Positions 1 to 64,000 of a stretch of 64,000 bases of DNA are shown piece by piece. The stretch is from Candidatus Parvarchaeota archaeon (GTDB lineage Archaea; Nanobdellota; Nanobdellia; B33-G15), in contig JAFCFZ010000001.1 in NCBI GenBank assembly GCA_017608385.1, forward strand, positions 8,734 to 72,733, given 5' to 3'. The translations under genes and the position numbers were made by a program. The notes beneath the pieces are model-generated. The model made no database searches. It was not told the origin of the DNA and saw only the letters and a program-made list of their open reading frames with translations. Position 1 is the first letter of the stretch. The number at the start of each line of letters is the position of its first letter.

Positions 1-552
1 TCCAAATCCACTTCCTGAAGGAGATACTGTAATTGTTTCGGTTTCAAATCCTCTAGCTCTTTGAAGCCATGCTCTTGACATGTAACCATGAATAGGTTGA
101 CCAACCATATATCCTGAAACAAGAATCTTGTTTCTTATCAAATATTCCGCAGATGTAGAATTTTTCATATAAATTCTATCTCCTCCCATCAAAACTTCAT
201 AATTAATATTCTCTGCCATCAAAGGTTCAAGAAAAGATTCTGTGAGATTCCATGCATCTTGATTCATACTTTCTACCCATAAACTTCCTAATAAATCTAA
301 AACGCTTCTATCATAATCATTAATTTTTATGTAATCTCTTAAAATTAAGTCTTGAATAATTGGATTACTTATGATATCTGAAATCTCTGTTTTTTGCAGC
401 ATGGAGAGCGCATCACTCGCTGTTTTGAAATGAGTAGTATAAGTTTTAGTGGGAGTATTGGGAGTATATTGAGTTGAAATGTACATCATAGTTGAACTTA
501 TCAAAACCATCATTGCAAATAAAAGATCTATCATTGCAACTTGTGATTTCAT
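1..552 (-). CDS. Class III signal peptide (type IV pilin-like) protein, partial because the 3' end runs off the window; last gene of a 4-gene pilin operon
   Basis: Minus-strand ATG at 552..550 overlaps the stop of the upstream ORF (ATGA). The N-terminus MKSQVAMIDLLFAMMVLISS has a basic residue, then S-Q, then a hydrophobic helix with an acidic residue about +5 from Q, which is the prepilin pattern. The ORF stays open to position 1. Confidence 0.5.
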   Translation of the reverse strand, partial: MKSQVAMIDLLFAMMVLISSTMMYISTQYTPNTPTKTYTTHFKTASDALSMLQKTEISDIISNPIIQDLILRDYIKINDYDRSVLDLLGSLWVESMNQDAWNLTESFLEPLMAENINYEVLMGGDRIYMKNSTSAEYLIRNKILVSGYMVGQPIHGYMSRAWLQRARGFETETITVSPSGSGFG

Positions 553-1058
553 CTCCAAACCTCCATTTGCATTTTTGCGGGAATGTTTTCTGTTTCATTA
601 TCTAAAAGAAAAAATCTATAGATTGGAATAAGGATGTATGGATCTGAAGGAGGATTTCCTTTTGTATAATTTATTTGGGTAGTGTAATTAAAAACAGAGG
701 TAATATTTATGAAAAGATTGTATCCAGAAAGGCCAATGCTAGAGATAATGTTATTGGTACTCACATTCATCAACATATCCAACTTATTTTTTGAAACAAC
801 AAAATTTTCTTTTTCTAGACCTAGTTGGATATAATCTGAATCAGTCCAATTAGAAGGAACTCCTTCTGTTCTTAACAATAATTCAGATGAATAAACTGCC
901 CTATCATAAAGTTCATTTTTTTCTATTTTCTGATTTTTTTGATCGACAGTAGAATAAACTGATGAATTCAAAAAAATAATGAGGGTCATGAAAATAACTA
1001 CAGCAATGATTACTTCAAATGTAAATATTTGTGCTTTACGAGATGATAATAGTCCCAT
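549..1058 (-). CDS. Type IV pilin-like protein (class III signal peptide)
   Basis: The N-terminus MGLLSSRKAQIFTFEVIIAVVIFMTLIIF has K-A-Q followed by a hydrophobic helix with an E. Its start overlaps the upstream gene by 23 bp and its stop overlaps the next ATG, so the genes look translationally coupled. Several N-x-T/S sites are present. Confidence 0.5.
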   Translation of the reverse strand: MGLLSSRKAQIFTFEVIIAVVIFMTLIIFLNSSVYSTVDQKNQKIEKNELYDRAVYSSELLLRTEGVPSNWTDSDYIQLGLEKENFVVSKNKLDMLMNVSTNNIISSIGLSGYNLFINITSVFNYTTQINYTKGNPPSDPYILIPIYRFFLLDNETENIPAKMQMEVWR

Positions 1059-1431
1059 TTTGATTACTCACCCAATTTTTTCCTTTTGAAAGGATTCCTG
1101 ATATAGATTTAGCAACTATTTCTTTAGAAATGATATTTCCTCTAAAACTAATCAAAACTAAATCATTAGAAAGAGAAATATTGTATTTCTCCCCTAACAA
1201 ATATTCATCAATATAAAGAGTGGATGAAAATCCATCCCCTTCAAAAACAACTGTATTTATCCTTTCAACGGTTTTATCAAGGATTTGACTTGCTCTTAAT
1301 CCAATCACTGAATAACTATAATCTATTGTTTTTAGATATGAAGCAGTTGTTATCGCAATACTACCCAAAAATAGAACTGAAATAAGGATAATTATTTCCA
1401 TTCCTAATTGTGATTTAGTAGAGAGAGACAT
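1036..1431 (-). CDS. Type IV pilin-like protein (class III signal peptide)
   Basis: The N-terminus MSLSTKSQLGMEIIILISVLFLGSIAI has K-S-Q, then E at +5 and a hydrophobic segment. It overlaps both neighbouring genes. Confidence 0.5.
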   Translation of the reverse strand: MSLSTKSQLGMEIIILISVLFLGSIAITTASYLKTIDYSYSVIGLRASQILDKTVERINTVVFEGDGFSSTLYIDEYLLGEKYNISLSNDLVLISFRGNIISKEIVAKSISGILSKGKNWVSNQNGTIIIS

Positions 1432-1819
1432 TCACATATCCTCCTTCTGCCTTGATTTTTAGAAGATATTCTCCTTTACTTATTGGAACAGAAATAGTGA
1501 TATTAAAATTTGTATCAGAAAATATCTCAGAAACTCCTGCAGGAGTACTTACATAAACAGAAAGGGTACTTCCTGTTGAATTTATGTTCACTACATTTGA
1601 AGGAACATGAATTCTTAATGGAATTGTAGCTGGACTTCCTTGAGTATAAACAAATTCAGCAGCATCTCGGACTCCATCAACAAAATCTTGAGCATAATTA
1701 ATAGATATTTGATAGCCTAAGCCATTTGAATAATTAAATAAGTATACCCAAAGAGGAGTTAAAATCAATAAAAACCCAAAAACAATACTCATATACTCTA
1801 TAGAGACTTGTGATTTCAT
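1415..1819 (-). CDS. Type IV pilin-like protein of the euryarchaeal QxSxE[FY] type; first gene of the operon
   Basis: The N-terminus MKSQVSIEYMSIVFGFLLILTPL has the QVSIEY motif typical of EppA-processed pilins, followed by a hydrophobic helix. The remaining 134 aa are beta-rich and carry N-glycosylation sequons. Confidence 0.55.
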   Translation of the reverse strand: MKSQVSIEYMSIVFGFLLILTPLWVYLFNYSNGLGYQISINYAQDFVDGVRDAAEFVYTQGSPATIPLRIHVPSNVVNINSTGSTLSVYVSTPAGVSEIFSDTNFNITISVPISKGEYLLKIKAEGGYVNVSLY

Positions 1820-1892
1820 TCAAACGTTATTCCTCATGGCTGAGATTTAAATATGTCGAAAAGATTTAAAGAACTCATGATGTAATTACTTT

Positions 1893-3335
1893 ATGAGGTT
1901 TTTATCACTCCCTGTGATTTTACTTTTGATAATTGGGATTGCTTTTTCAAGTCCTGCTCTTTTTGGATTCACAATATTATCAGATAAACAGTCCTATGTT
2001 CCAAATGATACAGTGAATTTGCAAAATATTGTTCTTTATGGTGTTGATAATCCTGCTTATGGAGCTAATGTCACAATACATCTTTATGATCCTAACAGAC
2101 TTTCTTTTCTGAATTCCTCTTGTTCTACTGATGAAAATGGAATTTGTAATGTGAATTTTACACTAGGTAATGAATTGGGCTATTGGATTGTAAATGGAAT
2201 TACCGAATTATCTGGAAATAGCATAATGAGTGTTATTCTTCTTGATATTCATGAGGAAATTTGTGGGGATGGGTATTGTGATATTAATGAACCTGGAAAT
2301 TGTGAATTAGACTGTGGAAAAATGAATGGGGGTGTTTGTTCATTAGATCAAGAATGTTATTCTGAATCTTGTTGTCATGGAATATGTAGAGATGATTGTC
2401 CTCATTGTGGGGATGGGTATTGTGATTCAGGGGAAATTTGTGTTTCTGATTGTGGAGAAGACATAGATACTGTAATTGAAGAAATGACTTCTTCTGGTTG
2501 GGGTTTCTTTGTAAGTGTTGGAATGAAAATTCATTCTGAGACATATTTTCAAACCTCTCAAAATTCAATATTAGAATTCGAAGTAGTTGTTGAAAATTTA
2601 GTTAACTCAACTAAAGAAGGAGTTTATCTCAGATTCGAAGGTGTCTCAGATCCTAATTTCTTTCCTGAAATAACTGATATAAATCCCTTAACAAATCAAT
2701 CCTTTGTTGTTTCCATTCCAATCTTATCTGGAGAAGATTTAGGAAATAAAACAATTGAAATGATTGCTGTTTCAAATAGATCTGTAAGTAATAGAGTGGA
2801 TATCACAATAAATGTGATTGAGACAGAATTTGATTCTCTTTTTAATTGCGTATTACAAGAATGTGAAATTCTTTGTTGTGAAAATTATGTTTGTTGTGAA
2901 GGTGTTTGTAGAACCTCTTGTCCTTATTGTGGAGATGGAATTTGTTCAATTGGAGAAAATTGTTTGTGTTCTGATTGTAATTCTTGTGAAAACAGTGAAA
3001 TTACAGGAAACAAAGAAGAAGCAGAGTCCAAAATCACTCAAGCAGAACTAGCAATTCAAAATGCTTTTGTTTATGTTTTTCAATTAATGATACAAGAATC
3101 TAAAGATTTCCTAGAAATTGCTAAGAATAATTTTGTGATATTTGATTATTCTCAATCAATTGTAATGGCTAACAATTCTCTAGAAACAACAAACAAAACC
3201 CAAATTTATGAATTCCTAAGTTATGGGAGTGTTGTACTCCTTTTCAGCTTGTTTTTCATCAACAAGTTTTATAAATCTCGAAATCAATCAAGAAAATATG
3301 GCAAAAGTATCAGTAAAAGGAAATCTAGGCGTTAA
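1893..3335 (+). CDS. Secreted cysteine-rich repeat surface protein with a C-terminal TM anchor
   Basis: An N-terminal signal or TM helix (LPVILLLIIGIAF) is followed by three CGDG[YI]C...DCG cysteine-rich modules (EEICGDGYCDINEPGNCELDCG, CPHCGDGYCDSGEICVSDCG, CPYCGDGICSIGENCLCSDC). The C-terminus has a hydrophobic helix and a basic tail (VVLLFSLFFINKFYKSRNQSRKYGKSISKRKSRR). There are many N-x-S/T sites. Confidence 0.55.
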   Translation: MRFLSLPVILLLIIGIAFSSPALFGFTILSDKQSYVPNDTVNLQNIVLYGVDNPAYGANVTIHLYDPNRLSFLNSSCSTDENGICNVNFTLGNELGYWIVNGITELSGNSIMSVILLDIHEEICGDGYCDINEPGNCELDCGKMNGGVCSLDQECYSESCCHGICRDDCPHCGDGYCDSGEICVSDCGEDIDTVIEEMTSSGWGFFVSVGMKIHSETYFQTSQNSILEFEVVVENLVNSTKEGVYLRFEGVSDPNFFPEITDINPLTNQSFVVSIPILSGEDLGNKTIEMIAVSNRSVSNRVDITINVIETEFDSLFNCVLQECEILCCENYVCCEGVCRTSCPYCGDGICSIGENCLCSDCNSCENSEITGNKEEAESKITQAELAIQNAFVYVFQLMIQESKDFLEIAKNNFVIFDYSQSIVMANNSLETTNKTQIYEFLSYGSVVLLFSLFFINKFYKSRNQSRKYGKSISKRKSRR

Positions 3336-3984
3336 AAAGCCATTAGTTCTTGTCGGATTTTATAGTCCTGGTTTAATTGGAACCTTAGTTTCACAATATC
3401 TTGCTAAAAGAACCAAAGCAAACCAAATAGGTCATTTAGAAACAGAACTTCCTCCTGTTGCTATGATATCTAAAGGTAAGGTAGAACATCCTATAAGAAT
3501 TTACAGTGTGAAAAAAAAGAATATGATCATTATCTCATCAGAATTACCTATCCCTCCAAACAATGCAGATGCTATAGCAAAAAGTATTGTAGAATGGGTC
3601 AAAAAAATAAATGGAGAAATAATTTGTATTGAAGGAATGATGGCAAAAAAAGCAGATAAATTATTTATGGTAACTTCTAAAAAGAATCTTAAAACAAATA
3701 TCCAATCTTTAGGAGAGGGAATTATAATGGGTATAACTGGTGCTCTTTTATTAAATTCTTCAGAAAAGAATGTTCCAACTACATGTATTGTTGCAGAAAC
3801 AGAATCACTAATGCCTGATGGAAAAGTTTCTGCTAAGGTAATTGAAAAAATGAATGAATTATTCAAATGGAATATTGATGTTGCTCCCTTATTAAAAGAA
3901 ACTCTATTATTTGAAAAGAAAATGAAGGAAATGCCTCAAATGAGAAAACCACAGTCTTCTGAGATGGGAAGATTATATGGTTAA
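3298..3984 (+). CDS. PAC2-family proteasome assembly chaperone (PbaA-like)
   Basis: Taking the internal ATG at 3298 (MAKVSVKGN), the sequence KKPLVLVGFYSPGLIGTLVSQYL...ELPPVAMISKGKVEHPIRIY matches the conserved PAC2 N-terminal pattern. The C-terminus ends ...RLYG, which resembles the HbYX motif used for proteasome docking. Confidence 0.55.
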   Translation: MAKVSVKGNLGVKKPLVLVGFYSPGLIGTLVSQYLAKRTKANQIGHLETELPPVAMISKGKVEHPIRIYSVKKKNMIIISSELPIPPNNADAIAKSIVEWVKKINGEIICIEGMMAKKADKLFMVTSKKNLKTNIQSLGEGIIMGITGALLLNSSEKNVPTTCIVAETESLMPDGKVSAKVIEKMNELFKWNIDVAPLLKETLLFEKKMKEMPQMRKPQSSEMGRLYG

Positions 3985-4334
3985 CATATCTGTTCTATTT
4001 CTGTACCATTAACTAACATAACTTCACATGGAAAATATGCTGAACAATTATTTTTACAATAATCGAGAGTGATCAAATAATTTATGTTAAATCCTGCAAG
4101 AAAAATTTGTCTCATTTCAAAACAGTCATTTCTACATTTGTTCTCTAAATCTGAATTATATGTATTTATACATCCTGTATATTCTGAACTCATACAACAA
4201 AGATTGTAATCAAATGAGCAACAAAGCCTTTCATTTACAAATCCACAATTAAAGTAAGTTAGACTTATAAACAAGACAAGAGGAATTGAGAAGAGTAATA
4301 AAAGTATTCCAAAAAGAAATGGTTTAAGTTTCAT
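3981..4334 (-). CDS. Small secreted cysteine-rich protein
   Basis: An N-terminal signal-like helix (MKLKPFLFGILLLLFSIPLVLFISL) is followed by a 90-aa domain with about 13 Cys. I did not recognise a family. Confidence 0.35.
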   Translation of the reverse strand: MKLKPFLFGILLLLFSIPLVLFISLTYFNCGFVNERLCCSFDYNLCCMSSEYTGCINTYNSDLENKCRNDCFEMRQIFLAGFNINYLITLDYCKNNCSAYFPCEVMLVNGTEIEQIC

Positions 4335-13285: not shown

Positions 13286-14017
13286 ATGTTAGAAAGATTC
13301 ACATTCAAAACGGAATACAAAAATACAAACCAATACAAAAATGCAGCAATCTTATCTATTATTATTTCAATTATTCTTATTCTTATGGCAGCAATTTTAT
13401 TTGATTTTTATTCATTGGCTTATACATTAGGAATTGGGGCAATGATTTACCAATTCTATGCTTTTTTCATAATATTTGAAATGTCTAAAAAGAAAATGAA
13501 AATAGGTAGTCATATTGTCACATTCTTGATGTTTTTTTTATTAATTACTGCAGTCATAATGGTCATAAAATTTGACAGAGCCAAGATAAGAGAGAACCCA
13601 ATGGGTCTTGCTTTAGGATTTTTAACAATAATTACTCCTGTGTTTTTTTGGGAAGAATTCTTTAAAAAAGCTGAGAAAATATTCAAGCCATTATTGATCC
13701 TTTTACTGTTGGTTCCTCTAATGATTCCAGGATATGCCCAAAACGAGACAAATGGAACATTACAGCAAGTAAGCAACGTCTTAGACTATGCGAAAATAGC
13801 TGTGGACTATGTCTCAGGAATTTTTGGTTTTTTTGGAGGGATACAAACAACAATACAAAACATGTTCGGTCTTGATCCAGGACAAGCCCAAATAATCAAC
13901 ATAGGGATTATCTTGGTGGTGCTCTATTTATTTTTGAGAACAATGAAATGGATTGTTAAGTGGATTATTCTAATATTGTTCGTATGGATTGCTCTTCAAG
14001 TAATAGGAATAATTTAA
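13286..14017 (+). CDS. Polytopic membrane protein, hypothetical
   Basis: It starts at the ATG just after the DUF655 stop and has about 7 hydrophobic helices. No family was recognised. Confidence 0.4.
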   Translation: MLERFTFKTEYKNTNQYKNAAILSIIISIILILMAAILFDFYSLAYTLGIGAMIYQFYAFFIIFEMSKKKMKIGSHIVTFLMFFLLITAVIMVIKFDRAKIRENPMGLALGFLTIITPVFFWEEFFKKAEKIFKPLLILLLLVPLMIPGYAQNETNGTLQQVSNVLDYAKIAVDYVSGIFGFFGGIQTTIQNMFGLDPGQAQIINIGIILVVLYLFLRTMKWIVKWIILILFVWIALQVIGII

Positions 14018-14469
14018 TAAGAGTTAGAAAATTGGATTGTGATTTTATCTGACTTATACAATTCTATATTTATTTTAGTACCGGAGATGTAATATCCAGA
14101 CAATTCAACACTCAAGGGAAGAGAAGCATCCAAACACTTTCTAATCCCAACCGATTCAAGATTCACACAAAACTTTCTCCCAATAATTGAAAGATAATAA
14201 ATAGACTCAATTAGTTTATCTGGAAAATCGATTTTATATGTTAAATTAACTGAATTTGTATCTTTTGTTAAGGAATATATTTTCAAAAAGGAAGAATCAA
14301 CATAATTCAAAAAATTGTCCATGCCTTCTTCATAAACATAATCTTCTACATTTGGTAAGAATAAACTAGATAAAAATACTGCAAGGCCAATAACTAATGT
14401 AACACCAATAGTAAAGGTGATAATTTCACTAATAACCACTGCTTGGGCTTTCATATTACTTAGCCACAC
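14014..14469 (-). CDS. Possible pilin-like or secreted protein with a class III-like signal
   Basis: The N-terminus MWLSNMKAQAVVISEIITFTIGVTLVIGLAVFL has K-A-Q followed by a hydrophobic helix with an E. Confidence 0.35.
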   Translation of the reverse strand: MWLSNMKAQAVVISEIITFTIGVTLVIGLAVFLSSLFLPNVEDYVYEEGMDNFLNYVDSSFLKIYSLTKDTNSVNLTYKIDFPDKLIESIYYLSIIGRKFCVNLESVGIRKCLDASLPLSVELSGYYISGTKINIELYKSDKITIQFSNSY

Positions 14470-15295
14470 TAAAAAGATCGAGTATTGTTTCTATTTTGTC
14501 CTTCTTTTTGTTGAGTCTTTCAAGAACTTGTCTATATGTTTCTTCAGTTATCTCTCCTTTAGATAATCTGGAATCTAAACTAGATATTTCCTCATCCACT
14601 GACTTTAATGAAACAGATATCTTTTCTTCAACTGAAACTCCTTTTTTAGGGATCAATAATGCTTTTTTCTCTGTTTTTTCCTTGTGTTTAACATATTTTG
14701 AAGCCAATTCATTATATGTTTCATTCACATCTTCTTCTAAAATTCTAAAACTATCTCTTGTTTTTTCCCTAGCATCTCCTGCGAGTATTAATTTCAAATC
14801 GCTTTTTTCAGACTCAACATCATAAATTCCAGATATCTTTAGCCAGACTTCCATAATTAATGTTCTTTTGATAAAATAAATCAATGATGCTAAAACCATT
14901 GTAATTATTGAGAATAAAAGGAGTTGTATTGTTGTATTTCCTCCAGGTAATAGGTATAAATAAAAAATTAATGAGAAGATACCAACAACTGCAAGAAGTT
15001 TCCATAAAAGACCATATTTAGGTCCCTTTCTTATCTTTTTGATTCCTTTTATTATAGACTTAACAGGTTTGAGTCTCCCTGACCTGAATATGTCTTCCAT
15101 TTCTAGATCTTCAAACTTAGTGAATTTATTGAGAATTGGAAAATAACCTAACTCTTGCATAATTTCAGAAGAAAAAACCCTAACTTCTTCAGGGTCTCCT
15201 GACCTTATACTAAGGTCTTGATAAAGATATTTGTTCTTTAATTTATTAGTTTGAAACTCATCTTCTATTTTTTCAACTCTTGGTTTGAAAAACAT
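14456..15295 (-). CDS. Membrane protein with a C-terminal SHOCT-like domain
   Basis: Two central TM helices are followed by a charged coiled-coil tail and the C-terminal SRLSKGEITEETYRQVLERL, which matches the SHOCT motif. Confidence 0.45.
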   Translation of the reverse strand: MFFKPRVEKIEDEFQTNKLKNKYLYQDLSIRSGDPEEVRVFSSEIMQELGYFPILNKFTKFEDLEMEDIFRSGRLKPVKSIIKGIKKIRKGPKYGLLWKLLAVVGIFSLIFYLYLLPGGNTTIQLLLFSIITMVLASLIYFIKRTLIMEVWLKISGIYDVESEKSDLKLILAGDAREKTRDSFRILEEDVNETYNELASKYVKHKEKTEKKALLIPKKGVSVEEKISVSLKSVDEEISSLDSRLSKGEITEETYRQVLERLNKKKDKIETILDLFSVAK

Positions 15296-43485: not shown

Positions 43486-44604
43486 ATGAAAAAATCTCAA
43501 AATGCTGTGCCTGCTATTCTTTTCTTATTTTTGGGGCTTTTTTTGTTTTATGTACTAATGATGACACCTAGTCAAATGGAAGGGCTTTTTGGAGATGACT
43601 CACCAACAACAAATGTTTCACAGGGAATTTCAGAAGAAGTTGGTTTGGTAGGAGGTTCAAGCGGAACAGAAATAGTTGGAACAAGGGATTTTCCAGAGTT
43701 TTTTGTTGCTTATCCTAGTGAGAGGACATTGAGGCACCACGAGAATCAGTTTACTTTATCCTCTAATATTTTTTATTCTGATTCTAAATATTATGATTTT
43801 GAAAAAGGGGACAATACTAAAGGAGTGCAAATATACATGAATATTGCTTCTTTGACAGGAGGCCCTTCATTAAGAGTTCTTCTTAATGGAGTTGAAGTGG
43901 GAACTGTACCCTCTGCAGGAGAAACAACATTAGAAATTGATGAGGCTCAACTTAACTCAAGTAATAGAATTTTGGTAGTTTGTCAATTCCAAGGATGGGC
44001 TTTCTGGGCAGGAGAAACATGTAATTTTGATGAAATGAATATTTATATTGAGAATTTTGAAACCAAAGACAGTAATTTCTCAAGAAATTTTGACATAACT
44101 GAAAAAGAAGCATATGCTTCATTTGTTGTTCTAAATTTCAGCATTGGTGAAAAAACAAATGATGGTGACATTATTGTTAGCATAAATGATGTAGAAGTTT
44201 ACAAAGACAACCCTGTTGAAGGAATATACACTGTAGAGGAAGAAATGAATATCCTTCAAACAAATAAACTACTTGTTCAAGTAGAAACAGGTGGGATTTA
44301 TGAAGTCAAAAAAATGACTTTAGGATTTAAAATGGATCAAATAGCTGAAAAAATGCCAATTATTGATTTTTACCTTGATGATACAAATTCTGACATAATT
44401 GTTAGAGTTTATGTTGAGGAATTAGTTCTTGGACCTAATATTCTAAATCTAAGAATGGAATCAGCAGGAGTGACATATCAAATAAGTCCATTAAGGGCAG
44501 GTTGGAATGAGATCACAATAAATAAAGAACATCTTAGATTAAGAAATTCAATGAGACTATCTTCAAATGGTTTAGTTGATATTGACCACATTGAGATAGA
44601 ATAA
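43486..44604 (+). CDS. Large secreted protein with a class III-like (K-S-Q) N-terminus
   Basis: MKKSQNAVPAILFLFLGLFLFYVLMM is followed by a 340-aa beta-rich domain. I did not recognise a family. Confidence 0.45.
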   Translation: MKKSQNAVPAILFLFLGLFLFYVLMMTPSQMEGLFGDDSPTTNVSQGISEEVGLVGGSSGTEIVGTRDFPEFFVAYPSERTLRHHENQFTLSSNIFYSDSKYYDFEKGDNTKGVQIYMNIASLTGGPSLRVLLNGVEVGTVPSAGETTLEIDEAQLNSSNRILVVCQFQGWAFWAGETCNFDEMNIYIENFETKDSNFSRNFDITEKEAYASFVVLNFSIGEKTNDGDIIVSINDVEVYKDNPVEGIYTVEEEMNILQTNKLLVQVETGGIYEVKKMTLGFKMDQIAEKMPIIDFYLDDTNSDIIVRVYVEELVLGPNILNLRMESAGVTYQISPLRAGWNEITINKEHLRLRNSMRLSSNGLVDIDHIEIE

Positions 44605-44613
44605 GGTGCAAAA

Positions 44614-46233
44614 ATGCCTATTGAAGAAAAATGGTTTTTTGAGGAGGAGGAGGAAGAGGATTCTGATGGAGAGTCTTCTGACTCTGATGGAGAGTCTTCT
44701 GACTCTGATGGAGGTTCATCTAAAAAACAGGGGGGCTGGGCCTACATAATAATGAGTATTGTTTTTGGATTTGTTGGATTTCTTATTTTAGGATTATTGG
44801 GTGGTTTTCTTCTCTTTATATTTCCATTAATTATCTGGTACTTTGGACCAGGAAAGGGAGTCAATTTTGTTATTTTGATTCTTGCTGCTTTTTTGGGATT
44901 GTGGTTTGGTGGAATTTTAGCAGCATTTCTTCTTCCTCTCCCAATTGCAGCTTGGTTATTTAGTGGTTCTTTCTTTGGAGAAGAAGGCGAAGGTAAATTT
45001 TTAAGAGGAATGTTAAGTATTGCTGCATTTATTCCGTTTTTCCTCGTATTTTTGTGGCCAATGATAGGAAGTTTTTTTGGATCTCAAGTTGCAATGGTTG
45101 GAACAAGCTTTGATGATTTTATTGGTATGATAAGTTCTCAAAAAGATCTTTTGATGAATGCAGATTATCAAAGATATTTAGGAGTTCAACAAAGTGTTTA
45201 TGATACTTCTTCACAAACTTATTCAAGTCCTACTACTAGTTTTGAGATAAACAGTTTTACTATCTCTCCTGAAAGTGGATGTTTTGAATTAAACACAATG
45301 AACTTTTTTGGTGTTGTAAAAAACACGGGGACTTTGAATATTGAAGGTATGAAAACGGGATTTTATTTAGATCCCACTCAAATAGGAACTAATTGTGAAC
45401 AAACAATCACCCAAATGGGGCACAAATATAAATGTCTTCTTGGACAAGAATGTATTATGGGGAAATGTGGGCTTGTTTTAGGAGAATACTTCTTAAATGC
45501 TGTTGAACCAGATTGTACATCTCATCCAAATCATGAGAGATGGGGATGTTATTGTGTGGATGAAGATGAAGTTAATACTATGAATACATTATATCCAAAT
45601 GCAATTGGAACATTTACTAAAACGATTGAGATGATTGATCCAAGTGATCCTCTTGATGTTGTAGACGCTATAACATGTAGGTTATTTGCTTATGCTCAAG
45701 CAGAATATACTGTTAGATCAAGATTAGAAGTTTCAATGATAAACTCTGAGTATTACATACTTAAGGGATTAGTATTTTCATCTGTCCCAGCAGTTCAATC
45801 AATAGGTCCTGTTCAATTGAGAATGGGTGTTGGAACACAACCAATTATTAACAACGAAGATAAAAGAGTTTTAACTGTTGCTCTTGGTAATGAAGGAAAT
45901 GGAGAATTAATTGATCTCAATAGTGTCTCATTATATGTCCCTACAGAATTTTCATCAGCAGGATGTGAAGGAGGTCAATTTGTTAGAACAGTTTGTTCAA
46001 GCGCTCCATCTAATATAGATAATTGTGAGGAAATGAGAAGTGAGGGATATAATTTATTTGTATTAGCAGTTGAAGCAACTCCCTATTCCTCCTATTCATG
46101 CTCATTAACTATTAATGAAAATATAAAGAATCTAGGTGGTGAAAACCGAAGATCATTTGTATTTTTAGCAGATGCTTCATATAATTACATGGTCAAAGCT
46201 CCTGCATTCATAACAGGAAATAGGTGTGTTTAA
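44614..46233 (+). CDS. Polytopic membrane protein with an acidic SDGESSD repeat N-terminus and a Cys-containing extracellular C-domain
   Basis: The N-terminus reads EEEEEEDSDGESSDSDGESSDSDGGSS. It is followed by about 6 TM helices in roughly 180 aa, then a roughly 350-aa soluble domain with about 12 Cys. Confidence 0.5.
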   Translation: MPIEEKWFFEEEEEEDSDGESSDSDGESSDSDGGSSKKQGGWAYIIMSIVFGFVGFLILGLLGGFLLFIFPLIIWYFGPGKGVNFVILILAAFLGLWFGGILAAFLLPLPIAAWLFSGSFFGEEGEGKFLRGMLSIAAFIPFFLVFLWPMIGSFFGSQVAMVGTSFDDFIGMISSQKDLLMNADYQRYLGVQQSVYDTSSQTYSSPTTSFEINSFTISPESGCFELNTMNFFGVVKNTGTLNIEGMKTGFYLDPTQIGTNCEQTITQMGHKYKCLLGQECIMGKCGLVLGEYFLNAVEPDCTSHPNHERWGCYCVDEDEVNTMNTLYPNAIGTFTKTIEMIDPSDPLDVVDAITCRLFAYAQAEYTVRSRLEVSMINSEYYILKGLVFSSVPAVQSIGPVQLRMGVGTQPIINNEDKRVLTVALGNEGNGELIDLNSVSLYVPTEFSSAGCEGGQFVRTVCSSAPSNIDNCEEMRSEGYNLFVLAVEATPYSSYSCSLTINENIKNLGGENRRSFVFLADASYNYMVKAPAFITGNRCV

Positions 46234-47264
46234 TGGATTTGAAAAAAATAATACCAATATTGGCAGTGGTTTTGGTACTTGGATGTATACAAGCTCCAGC
46301 AGAAGAAACCAAATTAATGGAATCTGAAGGATTAGGAATTCTATTATTCGGACTTCCATCTAATCCAGAAAATCCTGTTATAGAAATTGAAAAAGTTCCC
46401 GCTAATTCAGATGCCTTTCTTAGTCTTATCTTAAGAAACAATGCAGAAGGAGACATAGCTAAAGATATCACAGTTAGTCTAGACAATGTTGAGCCGTTTG
46501 ATATTGTAGAATGTGGAGATCAACATTCTCCTGTTGCTCAAAGAACTGAAGCATGTTATGGAAGTATATATGATGACAGACTTGAAGATGACTATAGAAC
46601 ACACAGAATAAATGAGATGAGACCTGATGAAGAATTAGAATTTTTTTGGGTGTTAAAATCTCCATCTAAACTAATAACGGGGGGTTTGTATTATCAACAC
46701 CCTATTTATGTAAGTGTGAATTATCACTATCATACAAGTATCTATACTGGTGTTGCTGCAATGACCTTTCAAGAGTATTCTTCAAGAAAATCTGGAGGAG
46801 GAAGTTTAACAGGAACTAGTACTTCAAGTGCAGGAGAGGTAATTGTTTATTCCCAAACAAGTGAGCCTATCTTATATGTTCAAGGTTCTCCTGGTTCATT
46901 TGTATTGAAATTATTAATAACTAATAGAGGAAATGGGATCCCAAAACCGAATGAAAAAGTCAACTTAACTATTGAGTTTGATAAAAATCTTGTTGAATTA
47001 AATGGAGAAACAACAGTTGATGTTGCAAATCAAAATCAGTTAAGATGGTTTAATACAGAATATGGAGCAAACAAACAAGATAGAGAATCATTATTACTCC
47101 AACAAATAGAACCAATCAATTTGATATCAAATTCTTACACAATAAATGTTCCTTTCAAATTATTGGAAAGTAATGCTAATTACCAAATTTTACCTTTTTA
47201 TGTGAGAATCAGTTATGATTATTCTTTAGAAAGTCAGACAGCATTAGGGGTGATACCAACTTGA
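46224..47264 (+). CDS. Lipobox-like secreted protein
   Basis: The N-terminus MDLKKIIPILAVVLVLGCIQAPAEE contains the lipobox-like LVLGC. It is beta-rich with N-glycan sequons and overlaps the next gene. Confidence 0.5.
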   Translation: MCLMDLKKIIPILAVVLVLGCIQAPAEETKLMESEGLGILLFGLPSNPENPVIEIEKVPANSDAFLSLILRNNAEGDIAKDITVSLDNVEPFDIVECGDQHSPVAQRTEACYGSIYDDRLEDDYRTHRINEMRPDEELEFFWVLKSPSKLITGGLYYQHPIYVSVNYHYHTSIYTGVAAMTFQEYSSRKSGGGSLTGTSTSSAGEVIVYSQTSEPILYVQGSPGSFVLKLLITNRGNGIPKPNEKVNLTIEFDKNLVELNGETTVDVANQNQLRWFNTEYGANKQDRESLLLQQIEPINLISNSYTINVPFKLLESNANYQILPFYVRISYDYSLESQTALGVIPT

Positions 47265-48136
47265 AAAAATATATACCTCTCTTTCTAGTGTTGCTTGTTC
47301 TTGGATGTATTCAACAAGAACCTGAAACAAATGACAAAATAATAACTTTTAACGGTTTGACAATTGTTTCATTCTCTGCAGACATAACCAACTTATTACC
47401 AGGAGAAACAACAGATTTGGAACTTTATATCAGAAACATTGGTGACTTCACTGCAGATAATATTGAGACTAAATTAATTGGTTTAGGTGAAATGACTGCA
47501 TTAATGAGAGGTTCCCCTCTAACAGAATTAGAACAAGCAGATTATGATTCATTTTCATGGGAATTAACAGCACCAAATATAGCTGGATTTACAACAGAGG
47601 TACCAATGACCCCTCAAGCAACAGTATATTACAAATATTTTTCACAGGCTTGGTCTGATGTAAATATTGTTCCTTCTTCATATTCTGAACAAGTAACTTC
47701 AGCAAATGGTACTTCCTCAGCTCCAATTGACATCACTATAACCCCAAGTTCAACTCCTTTGAGAACATATAGAGACAATATGCCTCTAAACATCCATATA
47801 GATTTAACAAATAGAGGGGGGGGAGGAATAGCATATTTCGAAAGTGGAGTTGAAAATTCAGCAAAAGCCAATTTTGTTGAGAATATAGTTATTAGATTCC
47901 CATCAGAATGGATAATTACAGATGATTCTTGGACCCTTTTAGGGGATAATGGTGCTGAAAAAGTATATTCATTGGGATGTTCTAGTGAATCCATTGTCCC
48001 ATATATCTGTCCTTCTGGATATAGTAAAGTGGGGAGTTCTTGTATTCAGTGTCCTTCTGGATATAGTTATAATGTAGAAGTTGGATGTGTTTTAGAAGTT
48101 GCAATAATTGATCCGGAAGTTTTCAGGATACAATAA
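47261..48136 (+). CDS. Lipobox-like secreted protein with CPSGY repeats; its C-terminal part appears to continue in ORF 48108..48626 after a +1 frameshift
   Basis: The N-terminus MKKYIPLFLVLLVLGCIQQEPE carries the same LVLGCIQ as the upstream gene. The C-terminus starts the repeats ICPSGYSKVGSSCIQCPSGYSYNVEVGC. The ORF ends 11 codons after a T4 run (48120-48123) where the reading frame switches. Confidence 0.5.
   Translation: MKKYIPLFLVLLVLGCIQQEPETNDKIITFNGLTIVSFSADITNLLPGETTDLELYIRNIGDFTADNIETKLIGLGEMTALMRGSPLTELEQADYDSFSWELTAPNIAGFTTEVPMTPQATVYYKYFSQAWSDVNIVPSSYSEQVTSANGTSSAPIDITITPSSTPLRTYRDNMPLNIHIDLTNRGGGGIAYFESGVENSAKANFVENIVIRFPSEWIITDDSWTLLGDNGAEKVYSLGCSSESIVPYICPSGYSKVGSSCIQCPSGYSYNVEVGCVLEVAIIDPEVFRIQ
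48008..48121 (+). repeat. 114-bp perfect direct repeat, copy 1 (copy 2 at 48243..48356)
   Basis: The 114-bp sequence TGTCCTTCTGGATATAGTAAAGTGGGGAG...ATTGATCCGGAAGTT is identical at both sites. A diverged 121-bp copy of the same coding unit lies between the two. Confidence 0.85.
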
Positions 48137-48626
48137 GGTTGGGGTCTTTTGTATAACATGTCCATCTGGATATACCTACGACATGGAGATTGGTTGTATA
48201 AAAGGAGAGGATATACTCTCAACAGAATCTACAGACCCTATTTGTCCTTCTGGATATAGTAAAGTGGGGAGTTCTTGTATTCAGTGTCCTTCTGGATATA
48301 GTTATAATGTAGAAGTTGGATGTGTTTTAGAAGTTGCAATAATTGATCCGGAAGTTATAATTGATCCGGAAGTTGCTGATCCTCTTTGTCCAAATGGTTC
48401 TGTGGAAGAAGAAGGAAAATGTATTTCAACAGATTCAGAAAGTTGTACAATTGATGATTTGAATTATAAATTAAGATTAACTCAAGGTAATTCAAACTTA
48501 GTTATAGTTCCATTCAATATCAGTCAAGTAGACACACCAGTAACTGAAAGATTCTATGTGAATATGACTTATGGATATAAATTGAATTCAAATCCAATAA
48601 CAATAACAATAATTCCCTTAATCTAA
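48108..48626 (+). CDS. CPSGY-repeat protein fragment, probably the C-terminal continuation of 47261..48136
   Basis: It has no signal peptide of its own. It continues the repeat motif (GYNKVGVFCITCPSGYTYDMEIGC, ICPSGYSKVGSSCIQCPSGYSYNVEVGC, IIDPEVIIDPEV, CPNGSVEEEGKC). Confidence 0.45.
   Translation: MIRKFSGYNKVGVFCITCPSGYTYDMEIGCIKGEDILSTESTDPICPSGYSKVGSSCIQCPSGYSYNVEVGCVLEVAIIDPEVIIDPEVADPLCPNGSVEEEGKCISTDSESCTIDDLNYKLRLTQGNSNLVIVPFNISQVDTPVTERFYVNMTYGYKLNSNPITITIIPLI
48243..48356 (+). repeat. 114-bp perfect direct repeat, copy 2
   Basis: It is identical to 48008..48121. Confidence 0.85.
48339..48374 (+). repeat. 18-bp tandem duplication (ATAATTGATCCGGAAGTT x2) encoding IIDPEV-IIDPEV
   Basis: It is read directly from the sequence and abuts the end of repeat copy 2. 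Confidence 0.8.
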
Positions 48627-57595: not shown

Positions 57596-58267
57596 TTATG
57601 CTTGTCTTAAAGAAATTGAAATTCCTTTGTTAGATATCTTGTATGCAAACAAACCTTGCTTATGTTTTGTTCTTCTCATCTTAACCACTTGAAGGCTTCT
57701 GTCAAAATCTCCCCCCAATCCACCATAGTGTAATACAATAACAGAATCTGATAAAAACTCCTCTACTTGGAACCTTGAATATCCTTTCTCGGCAATAATC
57801 TCTGAAGTCATTATAGCTGTACATCCATTATTCTTCACTGTCTTTCCTAATTCATAAATATTTTTTCTTAATTCATAAATATCTTTTAGATAAAATCCAA
57901 TTCCAGAAATAGAGTCTATAACAATTCTCTTTATTTTGTTTCTTTTCAACAAAAGTGAGAACTCCTGCTTAAATTTATCATATTCAAAAGGAGAAAAATG
58001 AAGTAATTTTATTTTCCCGCTCTTTATGTGTTTTTCCAAGTCCCAACCATATGCGGAAGCATCTCTTATAAGATCCTCAGCTGTTTCTTCAAATGAAACA
58101 TAAAGACCATTTTCACCATCAAGAGCACCTTGTATTAAAAATTGTAGAGAAAATGTGGTTTTTCCAGTACCTGGTCCGCCAGAAAGAAGAATAACACTTC
58201 CTAATTCTAAACCGCCATTAGCTATTTTATCCAAACCAGGAATTCCAGATTTTATTCTTAACCCCAT
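57596..58267 (-). CDS. KaiC-like / RadB-like RecA-superfamily ATPase
   Basis: SGIPGLDKIANGGLELGSVILLSGGPGTGKTTFSLQF and an IVLH... segment are Walker A and B motifs of the KaiC-like family. Confidence 0.7.
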   Translation of the reverse strand: MGLRIKSGIPGLDKIANGGLELGSVILLSGGPGTGKTTFSLQFLIQGALDGENGLYVSFEETAEDLIRDASAYGWDLEKHIKSGKIKLLHFSPFEYDKFKQEFSLLLKRNKIKRIVIDSISGIGFYLKDIYELRKNIYELGKTVKNNGCTAIMTSEIIAEKGYSRFQVEEFLSDSVIVLHYGGLGGDFDRSLQVVKMRRTKHKQGLFAYKISNKGISISLRQA

Positions 58268-61801: not shown

Positions 61802-62263
61802 ATGCCTAAAAAGAGTTCTAAGTCTAGTCCTTCTAATAATAGGTTAAAATATTTAGAGGACAAGATTGAACAAATCGAGAAGAAAACAAAAATTCTTGAT
61901 CAGTTTGAGTCTGCCATAACCAAATTAGCAGAACAAACAGATAAAATGGTTACAGTCAGTATAAATTTGCAAGCAAAAATGACTGAATTAATGATAAAAA
62001 CAACAGATCTTACTGAAAATGTCGTTGAGATGGTTGATATTCTAAAAGAAGCAGGTGACCTAGAAATGGATTCGGATAAGGAAGGAGGAAAAATTAGTAT
62101 TGAACCTATTGTTACTGAATTGAAAAAGATGCAAGAACAAAATGCTTTAACAATGAAAGAAATGAAGGGTCTTTTAGATTATATGAAAAAGATGTATACT
62201 AAACAATTAATTGGTGAGGCTGTAAGAAGTAACACAGCTGAAAGTGGCGGTTATGTTATCTAA
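61802..62263 (+). CDS. Coiled-coil hypothetical protein upstream of the pilin array
   Basis: This 153-aa protein is heptad-rich (LEDKIEQIEKKTKILDQFESAITKLAEQTDKM...). It overlaps the first pilin gene. Confidence 0.35.
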   Translation: MPKKSSKSSPSNNRLKYLEDKIEQIEKKTKILDQFESAITKLAEQTDKMVTVSINLQAKMTELMIKTTDLTENVVEMVDILKEAGDLEMDSDKEGGKISIEPIVTELKKMQEQNALTMKEMKGLLDYMKKMYTKQLIGEAVRSNTAESGGYVI

Positions 62264-62723
62264 AAAAGGGATTACACCTGTTATAGCAACGGTTTTATTG
62301 TTGATGATGACTGTTTCTGCAGCGGCAGGAGCATATTATTGGATAACAACTGTTCAATCAAGTCTTCAACAAGATGCTCAAGGTGCTATTGCTTCTTCAG
62401 GTATTAGTGGAGGATTTAGAATAAGTATCCTTTCTGGAGGTATTTCTTGTAATGGTACTTCAGATGAAGTAACAGTTTATGTAAAAAATGCAGGCACTCA
62501 AACCATCCCTGCTGGAACTTGGTATTCTTTCTTAAAAAATACCCAAAACATTGGAGTGGGAACCTGGTCTAGTTCTGAATCTGCTTTTAATTCTGGAAAC
62601 ACTTTAACAATAACCTTTGCACTTGATTCTGGGAATGGAATGTCTTCAGGAAACACATATACAATCCAAGTGAGTCCATCAAAGGGTACATCAGCAACAA
62701 CAAGCTGTAGAGCAACAACATAA
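62253..62723 (+). CDS. Type IV pilin-like protein of the KKGITPVIA class III signal family
   Basis: MLSKKGITPVIATVLLLMMTVSAAAGAYYW is an archaeal flagellin/pilin N-terminal-type signal (K-K-G then I-T-P-V-I-A). The 130-aa Ser/Thr/Gly-rich beta domain has two Cys. The start could instead be 62244. Confidence 0.6.
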   Translation: MLSKKGITPVIATVLLLMMTVSAAAGAYYWITTVQSSLQQDAQGAIASSGISGGFRISILSGGISCNGTSDEVTVYVKNAGTQTIPAGTWYSFLKNTQNIGVGTWSSSESAFNSGNTLTITFALDSGNGMSSGNTYTIQVSPSKGTSATTSCRATT

Positions 62724-62759
62724 AAAATCAATTAAATCTATGTATCATAATAACTATTA

Positions 62760-63224
62760 ATGAATAAAAAAGGAATCACTCCTGTGATTTCTATTGTTTT
62801 AATGATTATGATCACAGTTAGTGCTGCTTCTGCTGGTTATTTTTGGATGGGATCTATTCAATCTAATCTCCAAGTAAGTGCTCAAAATGCTATATCTTCC
62901 ACAGGTTTAGGGGGGAATTATCAAATTTCTGCTTTAGCGGGAGGAGTTATTTGTGAATCAGGAGTTGATGGAACAATTCAAGTTTATGTCTCAAATACGG
63001 GATCAAATAATATTGAAATGGGGGATTGGTATATCTTTGTAAAGGATTCAATAAATGCAAATGTTGGAACTTGGACAAATACTACTTTTCTAAATTCGGG
63101 GGAAACAGTTCCCATATTGTTTGAATTTTTGTCTGGCAGTTCTTTGTCAAATAAAACTCAATATGTTATTCAAATTAACTCACCAAAAGGGGGTTCTGCA
63201 ACAACATCTTGTTTACCTAAGTGA
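62760..63224 (+). CDS. Type IV pilin-like protein, paralog 2
   Basis: MNKKGITPVISIVLMIMITVSAASAGYFW has the same architecture and the same two conserved Cys positions (...ICESG..., ...TTSC...). Confidence 0.6.
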   Translation: MNKKGITPVISIVLMIMITVSAASAGYFWMGSIQSNLQVSAQNAISSTGLGGNYQISALAGGVICESGVDGTIQVYVSNTGSNNIEMGDWYIFVKDSINANVGTWTNTTFLNSGETVPILFEFLSGSSLSNKTQYVIQINSPKGGSATTSCLPK

Positions 63225-63260
63225 TAAACTATTTAAACATTCTTGATGTATGTGTTTAAC

Positions 63261-63755
63261 ATGAATAAGAAAGGTATTACACCTGTTATAGCAATTGTTT
63301 TATTGCTCATGATGACAGTTAGTTCTGCAGCAGCTGCTTATTATTGGATGACCACAATTCAGTCCAACCTACAGCAGCAAGCGCAGGGAGCAATATCATC
63401 TGCTGGTTTAGGTGGAGGTTACGGTATCAGTGTTTTATCTGGAAGTACATCTTGTTTGTATAATGGCACAACAGGTACACAAGTAGACGCTTACCTTAGT
63501 GTTACTGGATCCAACCAAATGCCTATTGGAGATTGGTATGCTTTTGTCGTAGACTCTACTGGTGCGAGTGTTGGTACTTGGTCCAAAACAAGTCAAGCAG
63601 CACTATCATCTGGTGTTGCAACAAAAGTTGAATTTACAAATGTATCAATAGTGACTGCAAGTTACAACCTAACTAAAGCAACAGTATATACTGTAACAGT
63701 TAACTCACCAAAGGGTACATCTGCAACAACAAGCTGCACAGGTAGTACGATATAA
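63261..63755 (+). CDS. Type IV pilin-like protein, paralog 3
   Basis: The start is taken at MNKKGITPVIAIVLLLMMTVSSAAAAYYW. It has the same domain and Cys pair. Confidence 0.6.
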   Translation: MNKKGITPVIAIVLLLMMTVSSAAAAYYWMTTIQSNLQQQAQGAISSAGLGGGYGISVLSGSTSCLYNGTTGTQVDAYLSVTGSNQMPIGDWYAFVVDSTGASVGTWSKTSQAALSSGVATKVEFTNVSIVTASYNLTKATVYTVTVNSPKGTSATTSCTGSTI

Positions 63756-63785: not shown

Positions 63786-64000
63786 ATGAAAAAAGGACAA
63801 TCCACAGTAGTTAGTAGCGTACTTATTTCTGGTATTATTATCTCTATAATTAGTCTCACTTATGTGTGGGGCAGACCTTTAATTCAGAAGACAGCAGATA
63901 AATCAAACATTGATTCTGCTAAAAATGACCTAATCAATTTAAAGGATATGATTATTGAGGCAGCAAGTACTGGAAGTACTGGGAGATATGAATTAAATTT
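63786..64000 (+). CDS. Pilin-like protein with a KKGQ-type class III signal, partial because the 3' end runs off the window
   Basis: MKKGQSTVVSSVLISGIIISIISLTYVWG has K-K-G then Q followed by a hydrophobic helix (a FlaK/EppA-type site). The ORF is open to the window end. Confidence 0.45.
   Translation, partial: MKKGQSTVVSSVLISGIIISIISLTYVWGRPLIQKTADKSNIDSAKNDLINLKDMIIEAASTGSTGRYELN

Follow-up and report, generated by a model that had tools for sequence, protein, structure and literature searches.

A probable Epd-like archaeal type IV pilus operon at the edge of a DNA window from a Woesearchaeota-related DPANN archaeon

Known Epd-like systems and the locus compared with them

The Epd pilins of Methanococcus maripaludis are the closest described counterparts of the genes considered here. 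These proteins have a leader of 5-13 residues, with Gln at position +1 and Glu at position +5 of the mature protein, and are processed at RAQI, KGQV, KGQL and KGQI (PMC3875500, PMC4371748). The peptidase EppA requires Gln at +1 (PMC4371748, PMC3875500), and the Epd system makes pili that are needed for attachment (PMC4371748). In the classification of archaeal type IV pili, a split platform, at least five proteins with class III (prepilin) signal peptides and large adhesin-like pilins are the hallmarks of Clade 1 (Makarova 2016, PMC4858521), and the same features characterise System 1, which was reported in methanogens, Thermococcales and DPANN archaea (Sivabalasarma and Albers 2026 preprint). 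A locus of this kind was met in a 64,000-nucleotide stretch of DNA from Candidatus Parvarchaeota archaeon (assembly GCA_017608385.1, contig JAFCFZ010000001.1, positions 8,734 to 72,733), the whole of which is called the window below. Positions 1-1819 of its minus strand are probably the promoter-proximal part of an Epd-like archaeal type IV pilus operon (System 1/Clade 1) of a DPANN (Woesearchaeota-related) archaeon. Such an apparatus is already described in methanogens and DPANN archaea, and the locus adds a well-supported member to it, not a new type of machine.

The window is clearly archaeal, has a G+C content of about 31%, and encodes S19e, the thermosome, SRP54, SecD/F and PAC2. Four open reading frames (ORFs) run towards its first position; a slash marks the predicted cleavage site, and lengths are in amino acids (aa).

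Gene 1 (ORF1), 1415-1819, minus strand: 134 aa, MKS/QVSIEY (Q+1, S+3, E+5, Y+6); heads the operon; pilin-like, of a DUF361/UPF0333-type family
Gene 2 (ORF2), 1036-1431, minus strand: 131 aa, MSLSTKS/QLGMEI; paralogue of gene 1 over the full length
Gene 3 (ORF3), 549-1058, minus strand: 169 aa, MGLLSSRKA/QIFTFEV (Q+1, E+6); putative pilin-like minor subunit
Gene 4 (ORF4), 1-552, partial, minus strand: N-terminal 184 aa, MKS/QVAMID (Q+1, D+6); gene cut by the window edge; candidate tip adhesin

An original prediction, made from the sequence alone, had described four overlapping minus-strand genes here, and the ORFs lie exactly where it placed them, with successive overlaps of 17, 23 and 4 base pairs (bp), the last of which (gene 3/gene 4) is an ATGA. 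A Shine-Dalgarno-like GGAGG or GGTGA is located 7-9 nucleotides (nt) before each internal start, within the preceding gene. For instance, the start of gene 2, which shares 17 bp with gene 1, is preceded by GGAGG at a distance of 8 nt.

The short leader, a pattern similar to [KR][GA]Q, and the combination of Q+1 and E+5 (DUF361/PF04021) are common to this locus and to the Epd, Clade 1 and System 1 machines. Further features shared with Epd and Clade 1 loci, most of them visible in relatives of the window, are five or more class III minor pilin-like genes cotranscribed with an ATPase, two TadC platform genes, one or more large adhesin-like class III proteins, and occurrence in DPANN archaea. Two platform genes are also present in some Clade 2 and 4A loci, so this property is not exclusive to Clade 1. 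There are also differences. Epd pilins have Gly or Ala at position -1, whereas Ser occupies it in three of the four genes here; Clade 1 loci often include EppA, whereas none lies near this locus in any lineage viewed. The domain reported for the Clade 1 adhesins, DUF2341, was not found here; VWA or galactose-binding-like modules occur in the large protein instead. Moreover, gene 1 has Y+6, a residue that M. maripaludis pilins are reported to lack (PMC3875500).

The class III leader and the gene 1 family

All four ORFs begin with a short basic leader and [KR][SA]Q, after which a hydrophobic helix follows. Position -2 is Lys or Arg and position +1 is Gln in each of them; at position -1, ORF3 has Ala and the other three have Ser. 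The acidic residue is E+5 in ORF1 and ORF2, E+6 in ORF3 and D+6 in ORF4, and the Kyte-Doolittle mean across the 20 residues past the Gln ranges from 1.7 to 2.9. Among 76 likely genes of the window, [KR][GASC]Q with a 20-residue hydrophobic stretch occurs six times, always within the first eight residues of a protein, and four of the six occurrences are the consecutive genes 1-4. A chance motif was rejected, as internal occurrences numbered zero in 17,934 positions. An ordinary Sec signal was likewise rejected for genes 1-4: the leaders comprise 3-14 residues with no AxA-type site, and the conserved Gln and Glu sit inside the start of the helix. Additionally, the locus proteins contain 1.1-4.1 N-glycosylation sequons per 100 aa versus 0-0.4 in cytoplasmic proteins of the window, a 3- to 10-fold higher density that is consistent with surface exposure.

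The family of ORF1 is large. A full hidden Markov model (HMM) scan of cluster representatives with a four-sequence ORF1 profile recovered at least 645 of them at E<=1e-3 and 112 at E<=1e-10, with matches that are nearly all full length (130-145 aa). In an alignment of 106 members, 23-40% identical to ORF1, the sole invariant columns are Q4 (Q+1) and E8 (E+5), both conserved in 106/106 sequences. Position -2 is Lys or Arg in 90 of the 106, and position -1 is Ala in 44, Gly in 42, Ser in 13 and Cys in 3, which gives Ala, Gly or Ser in 99. Position +3 is Ala, Ser or Gly, position +6 is Tyr in 90 sequences, and the leader is 3-14 residues long. PF04021 (Class III signal peptide, DUF361) is matched by 30 of the 106 members, with a best E of 1.2e-6, and some members are labelled 'UPF0333 family' by JGI. 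The class III signature that had been recognised in the four N-termini is supported, and it is of the EppA type (Q+1, E+5).

Class III predictors can nevertheless be misleading for this lineage. The strict FlaFind-type rule, said to go back to Szabo 2007, reportedly reads [KRDE][GA][ALIFQMVED][ILMVTAS]x3. In this form it passes 55 of the 106 ORF1-family members and would reject all four window ORFs. ORF1, ORF2 and ORF4 fail because of Ser at -1, ORF2 also has Gly at +3 as a second failure, and ORF3, with Ala at -1, fails because of Phe at +3. A refutation based on such predictors, as envisaged in the original prediction, would therefore be a false negative. Orthologues in other lineages carry Gly or Ala at -1; K[SA]Q in the window thus represents a lineage-specific form of K[GA]Q.

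As for structure, the pilin-like helix with a beta domain that had been proposed as a check appears in the AlphaFold model of gene 1 (pLDDT 84.9, pTM 0.68), in which helix 2-60 is followed by a seven-strand beta domain. The modelled protein has the pilin 'lollipop' fold, and a Foldseek search of the model against PDB gave nothing significant. Gene 2 is related to gene 1 beyond the leader, the two aligning in hhalign with 96.8% probability (E 2e-10, 124 columns); A3 against gene 2 gave a probability of 96.5%.

Related loci, assembly genes and the large gene 4

The window ends at position 1, and the gene content beyond it was read from related loci. In L003, a Woesearchaeota metagenome-assembled genome, the order is PAC2, a Cys-rich protein of 470 aa, then proteins of 134, 132, 169 and 613 aa, then gene 5. 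In L004, with an ORF1 74% identical to that of the window, genes for proteins of 134/133/169/613/402/79 aa are followed by a T2SSE ATPase (529 aa), two T2SSF genes (266 and 329 aa) and a 141-aa pilin. Distant ORF1-family loci (24-31% identical), from five further DPANN lineages, have the same arrangement as L004, consisting of three small pilin-like genes, one large and variable gene (613-1340 aa) and a fifth of about 320-420 aa. Wherever the related contig extends far enough, a T2SSE ATPase and one or two TadC/T2SSF genes come next. The distant loci are as follows.

L007, L008 and L012 (Aenigmatarchaeota): 136/135/169/970-975 (VWA)/334-335/CBS protein/intein-containing T2SSE/two T2SSF
L010: 143/129/168/1340/419/../T2SSE/T2SSF
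L013 and L014: same module; the T2SSE ATPase gene is visible in L014, while L013 breaks off ahead of any recognisable one
L009: truncated; first four genes visible

Positional orthology of the locus genes was confirmed by hmmsearch. Gene 1 was recovered most consistently, with E values of 1e-11 to 1e-16 in six of six distant loci. Gene 2 has positional orthologues in L007 and L012 (E 1e-14 and 1e-11) and in L014 (1e-4), and its orthologue in L009 shows a weak precomputed PF04021 match. Gene 3 has orthologues at the same position in L007 and L012 (E 1e-29) and in L014 (1e-3); it keeps [KR][AS]Q with Asp or Glu at +6 across lineages, contains seven N-glycosylation sequons, and had no match in a PDB sequence search. 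Across lineages, the motif of genes 1 and 2 is K[GA]Q...E, with the Glu at +5, that of gene 3 is KAQ....D/E and that of gene 4 is K[GA][QI]....D/E, both with the acidic residue at +6. Gene 5 has KG followed by hydrophobic residues, as in MVNKG/VVFSIMTLFLL of L003, and it is about 320-420 aa long, with neither the Gln nor an acidic residue. In effect, five consecutive genes have class III-like N-termini. The four pilin-like subunits of the original prediction were thus rightly called pilin-like and wrongly counted, since the set comprises five in relatives and the window cuts the operon.

The assembly genes of the relatives are readily recognised. The ATPase of L004 matches T2SSE/PF00437 with 116 bits; the closest solved relative of the ATPase is Archaeoglobus fulgidus GspE (2oap, E 1.6e-72), followed by FlaI and CpaF (E 7e-46). 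The 266-aa and 329-aa T2SSF proteins of L004 align to positions 5-248 and 267-463 of the ArlJ profile, that is, to its N- and C-terminal halves, and the platform is therefore split; two T2SSF genes are also found in L007, L008 and L012. In the window itself, Pfam detected no T2SSE ATPase, T2SSF platform or A24 peptidase among 27 selected ORFs (the largest, multi-transmembrane (TM) and class III-like ones), which agrees with what had been seen before. The original prediction advised a look beyond position 1; in every related locus that is long enough, an ATPase and a platform lie directly downstream of the equivalent genes. On the strength of this synteny, ATPase and TadC genes are to be expected in the window's own genome as well.

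Two side observations concern these assembly genes. In the Aenigmatarchaeota loci, an intein that carries a LAGLIDADG endonuclease (PF14890, PF14528) interrupts the T2SSE ATPase of the pilus (L007 15888-18908, L008 8428-11448, L012 8473-11421). Moreover, the 79-aa gene of L004 (5946-6185), directly upstream of the ATPase, encodes a helix-turn-helix (HTH)-like protein with a weak Lrs14-like match (E 5.5e-4). Winged-helix/HTH-like cytoplasmic proteins of 382-388 aa are also encoded upstream of the ATPase in L010 (15100-16248) and L014 (9239-10405), and the HTH-like protein is possibly a locus-specific regulator or an accessory protein.

Class III signals and a homologous ATPase and platform also occur in the archaellum, which was rejected as an identity for this locus. 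The ATPase scores 262 bits against the FlaI equivalog, for which the cut-off is 550, and the locus has a split platform and lacks accessory genes of the ArlF/G/H/X/CDE type. In addition, FlaK of M. maripaludis does not process Q+1 substrates (PMC4371748).

Bacterial Tad/Flp pili (Flp, the pseudopilins TadE and TadF, CpaF/TadA, TadB+TadC) resemble the locus in having a G/XXXXEY-type processing motif with E+5 and Y+6, a pair of platform genes and pseudopilins of about 130-190 aa, and the ATPase matches CpaF at E 7e-46. They differ in that the ATPase of the present system is of an archaeal lineage nearer to afGspE and FlaI, that Gln stands at +1, that secretin and Rcp genes are missing, and that gene 1, unlike Flp, has a globular beta domain. 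A Tad/Flp-like layout, with the major pilin gene in first place, would make gene 1, with or without its paralogue gene 2, the major filament subunit and genes 3-5 alone minor pilins. It corresponds to the major-plus-minors arrangement proposed originally and is a tentative possibility. In its favour, gene 1 heads the operon straight after a TATA-like element, is the member recovered most consistently across lineages, and carries the Flp-like E+5/Y+6 pair, with Tyr in 90 of 106 relatives. Furthermore, no other small pilin gene was found in the readable parts of the distant loci, most of which end before or inside the TadC genes. Against it, the major pilin of M. maripaludis is a stand-alone protein of about 74 aa without a globular domain (PMC3875500). 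L004 has a separate Q+1/E+5 pilin after its TadC genes, and most distant loci end right after these genes, which leaves room for a further pilin. Pilins could also be supplied in trans by three tandem TIGR02537-positive genes of the window. The 141-aa pilin of L004 starts MRAQAALEYLMTYGW; its N-terminal 22 residues are common to the ORF1 family (90.7% probability), and it has no homologue in the window.

Gene 4 is the most variable member of the set. ORF4 shares 61% identity with a 613-aa protein of L003 and, judged by this alignment, forms the N-terminus of a protein of about 613 aa, whose counterparts in other lineages are large, variable and often equipped with a VWA domain. Of the four pilin-like subunits proposed originally, ORF4 is thus not a small pilin. 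Orthologues in other lineages have 631-1340 aa (hmmsearch E 2e-39 to 7e-4). The VWA domain scores 33.7 bits in L007 (cut-off 23.8), L013 and L009 match it less strongly, and L004 has a weak galactose-binding-like segment. The VWA domain is present in Aenigmatarchaeota orthologues and was not detected in gene 4 of the window's lineage. A homologue search with the partial ORF4 as query gave nothing. Two metagenome scans, with an alignment and a single protein as the respective queries, were also empty. Being large, variable and often VWA-bearing, gene 4 is the best adhesin candidate at the locus and a more likely adhesin than the Cys-rich neighbour.

In bacteria, minor-pilin tip complexes with PilY1 and modular pilins, such as PilB of Streptococcus sanguinis with its vWA domain, are considered to prime assembly and to occupy the pilus tip. 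The five-gene set may be compared with them by analogy, as both have four to five co-encoded, low-abundance pilin-like proteins, one of which is large with a VWA-type adhesive module. The two differ in that no sequence homology was detected, the likeness being one of architecture alone.

The same five proteins might instead form a whole short pseudopilus serving secretion, uptake of DNA or nutrients, or display of binding proteins, similarly to type II secretion, Com or bindosome systems. Five pilin-like genes with an ATPase and a platform do resemble comG and gsp operons, reduced-genome DPANN archaea must scavenge metabolites, and class III binding proteins are argued to functionalise type IV filament machines (Sivabalasarma and Albers 2026 preprint). 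Moreover, the ATPase matches the bindosome BasE model, weakly, with 151 bits that are far under the cut-off of 1000. This explanation is nevertheless unlikely. Domains of substrate-binding proteins were not found in genes 1-5, the VWA and galactose-binding-like modules of gene 4 point toward adhesion, and the homologous Epd pili are required for attachment (PMC4371748).

Several observations weigh against an Epd-like pilus operon. The four window proteins gave no match to PF04021, TIGR02537 or any pilin model (Pfam, NCBIfam, E<=1); PF04021 was matched instead by 30 of the 106 ORF1 homologues. Ser at -1 is outside the canonical Gly or Ala. In hhalign, no homology of genes 3, 4 and 5 to the gene 1 family was detected past the N-terminus, and the single-sequence AlphaFold2 prediction of gene 3 is confident for the N-terminal helix alone, its overall pLDDT of 42.5 denoting an unusable model. 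Evidence for ATPase and TadC genes comes from relatives and not from the window's own genome, and the Clade 1 placement rests on gene content, with A. fulgidus GspE as the nearest solved relative of the ATPase. Additionally, no A24 peptidase was found in the window ORFs scanned or in the related loci, and a dedicated 9-TM EppA gene is missing from the stretches viewed, of up to 10 kb on each side, in all seven lineages, unlike in M. maripaludis, where the EppA gene sits in the epd locus.

Some of these points would also fit N-termini that are uncleaved signal anchors, with the proteins acting as non-polymerising stators or alignment parts similar to ArlF/ArlG. No peptidase gene was found in the scanned window ORFs or the related loci, Ser and Cys are non-canonical residues at -1, gene 5 has no Gln or acidic residue, and direct pilin HMM matches are missing for the window proteins. 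Still, such a role is very improbable. The absolute conservation of Q+1 and E+5, accompanied by Lys or Arg at -2, across 106 sequences only 23-40% identical is hard to square with a plain anchor. Epd pilins with the same signature are processed experimentally (PMC3875500, PMC4371748), and 86 of the 106 family members have the canonical Gly or Ala at -1.

If the locus is an Epd-like pilus operon, as is probable, its products would sit in the membrane by their hydrophobic N-terminal helices until a class III (prepilin) peptidase accepting Gln at +1, similar to EppA, cuts the basic leader between Ser or Ala and Gln. The ATPase and the split TadC platform, presumably encoded just past position 1, would then pull the mature subunits from the membrane. 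The subunits would polymerise through their conserved N-terminal helices, with E+5 serving subunit registration as it does in bacterial pilins. Genes 1 and 2 would be paralogous small pilins, while gene 3, gene 4 and the fifth gene outside the window would complete the conserved five-protein set. This set may act as a minor-pilin priming or tip complex, in which adhesion would fall to the large, lineage-variable gene 4 product. The bulk filament subunit probably comes from outside this set, either as a pilin of the L004 type (141 aa, after TadC) or as pilins acting in trans.

A more far-reaching proposal, which is doubtful at present, is that the five-gene set is a pilus tip or priming complex common to DPANN archaea, in which exchange of the cassette-like gene 4 between lineages decides to which host cell the symbiont binds and Ser at -1 in the window's lineage reflects co-evolution with a peptidase of altered, undescribed specificity. 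The modules of gene 4 across lineages are VWA, galactose-binding-like or unknown, in proteins of 613-1340 aa.

Neighbouring surface genes and significance for DPANN attachment

The operon diverges from another surface-protein gene.

Divergent intergenic region, 1820-1892 (73 bp), no strand: two TTTAAA (TATA-like) elements, at 1846 and 1865
Cys-rich divergent gene, 1893-3335, plus strand: 480 aa, type I membrane protein

The TTTAAA elements, one for each gene, are placed about 25-30 nt before the ATG of gene 1 and of the divergent gene, and they are probably promoters. The divergent protein has an N-terminal Sec-like signal, 30 Cys residues, a C-terminal TM segment and a basic tail. Its CGDG[YI]C modules, three in number, are at residues 124, 172 and 346, and an MG2/Ig-like N-terminal domain scores 27.1 bits for MG2, below the cut-off of 32.8; the L004 orthologue reaches 32.8 bits, which equals the cut-off. 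The protein has 11 sequons and no PDB sequence match.

This protein had been considered a plausible adhesin. The architecture on which that idea was built, namely three modules, a Sec signal, a TM segment and a basic tail, stands; the role of an adhesin belonging to the locus finds no support in distant loci, where no homologue was detected. A dedicated pilus adhesin or anchor would fit the divergent position across a shared 73-bp region, the synteny in L001-L006, and the surface-protein architecture with its many sequons. However, that synteny is limited to close relatives (L001-L006 only, with ORF1 65-74% identical), and the gene is absent from L007-L014. In six distant loci the place next to the operon belongs to PAC2 or other genes. 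PAC2 abuts it in L009, L010 and L013, and other genes do so in L007, L008, L012 and L014. The protein also has a Sec-type signal, not a class III one, and its own TM anchor. A dedicated role in the pilus is therefore improbable, and a functional link to it is possible but unproven.

The flanking genes show an order of their own. PAC2 adjoins the pilin operon in distant DPANN archaea (L009 9164-9934, L010 7243-8013, L013 2493-3251), and in distant lineages it usually ends an L44e-S27e-eIF2alpha-Nop10-PAC2 block. In the window, PAC2 lies at 3298-3984 (plus strand), with the Cys-rich gene inserted between it and the operon and the orientation inverted. Beside PAC2, at 3981-4334 (minus strand), is a gene for a small secreted Cys-rich protein of 117 aa (L003 266-631), which is kept in L001, L003 and L005 and has no assigned family.

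Further class III-type genes, absent from the original prediction, are found elsewhere in the window at 14014-14454, 43486-44604, 62244-63755 and 63786-64000. Three tandem paralogous genes of pilin/archaellin type on the plus strand (62244-62723, 62760-63224 and 63243-63755) have KKG/ITPVIA N-termini. They match TIGR02537 with 41.3 and 37.0 bits (cut-off 20) and PF01917 with 31.5 bits (cut-off 29.5), and they are possible in-trans major pilins. After them comes a partial gene on the same strand (63786-64000, MKKGQSTVVSS), weakly DUF7289-like. The KKG/ITPVIA genes predict a peptidase activity of PibD/FlaK-type. With Q+1 and G/ITPV substrates in one genome, either two peptidases or one of broad specificity are therefore predicted.

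At 14014-14454 (minus strand), a stand-alone class III-like gene encodes a 146-aa protein with MKAQAVVISE followed by a hydrophobic helix and a weak full-length DUF7266 match (E 1.7e-3). It adjoins a gene for a 279-aa two-TM coiled-coil protein (14456-15295). A surface-protein gene cluster with no Pfam assignment extends over 43486-48626 (plus strand). It begins with a 372-aa class III-like protein (43486-44604) that starts MKKSQNAVPAILF and has no acidic residue, and it also encodes a 539-aa protein with four TM segments and a Cys-rich ectodomain, a 172-aa protein, and two proteins of 346 and 291 aa with lipobox-like VLGCIQ N-termini. Additionally, a stand-alone KaiC-family ATPase of 223 aa (PF06745, 212 bits) is encoded at 57596-58267 (minus strand); ATPases of this family are possible regulators of archaeal type IV pili (Makarova 2016, PMC4858521).

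DPANN archaea depend on physical contact with a host, and their attachment structures are mostly uncharacterised. Against this background, the locus represents a concrete, conserved set in which five pilin-like genes go together with an ATPase and a split platform. Within it, gene 4, not the Cys-rich neighbour, is the clear candidate for the host-binding module. Class III predictors that demand Gly or Ala at -1 would miss the window's lineage. The known picture of archaeal type IV filaments is left unchanged by these findings and is extended to a Woesearchaeota-like genome.

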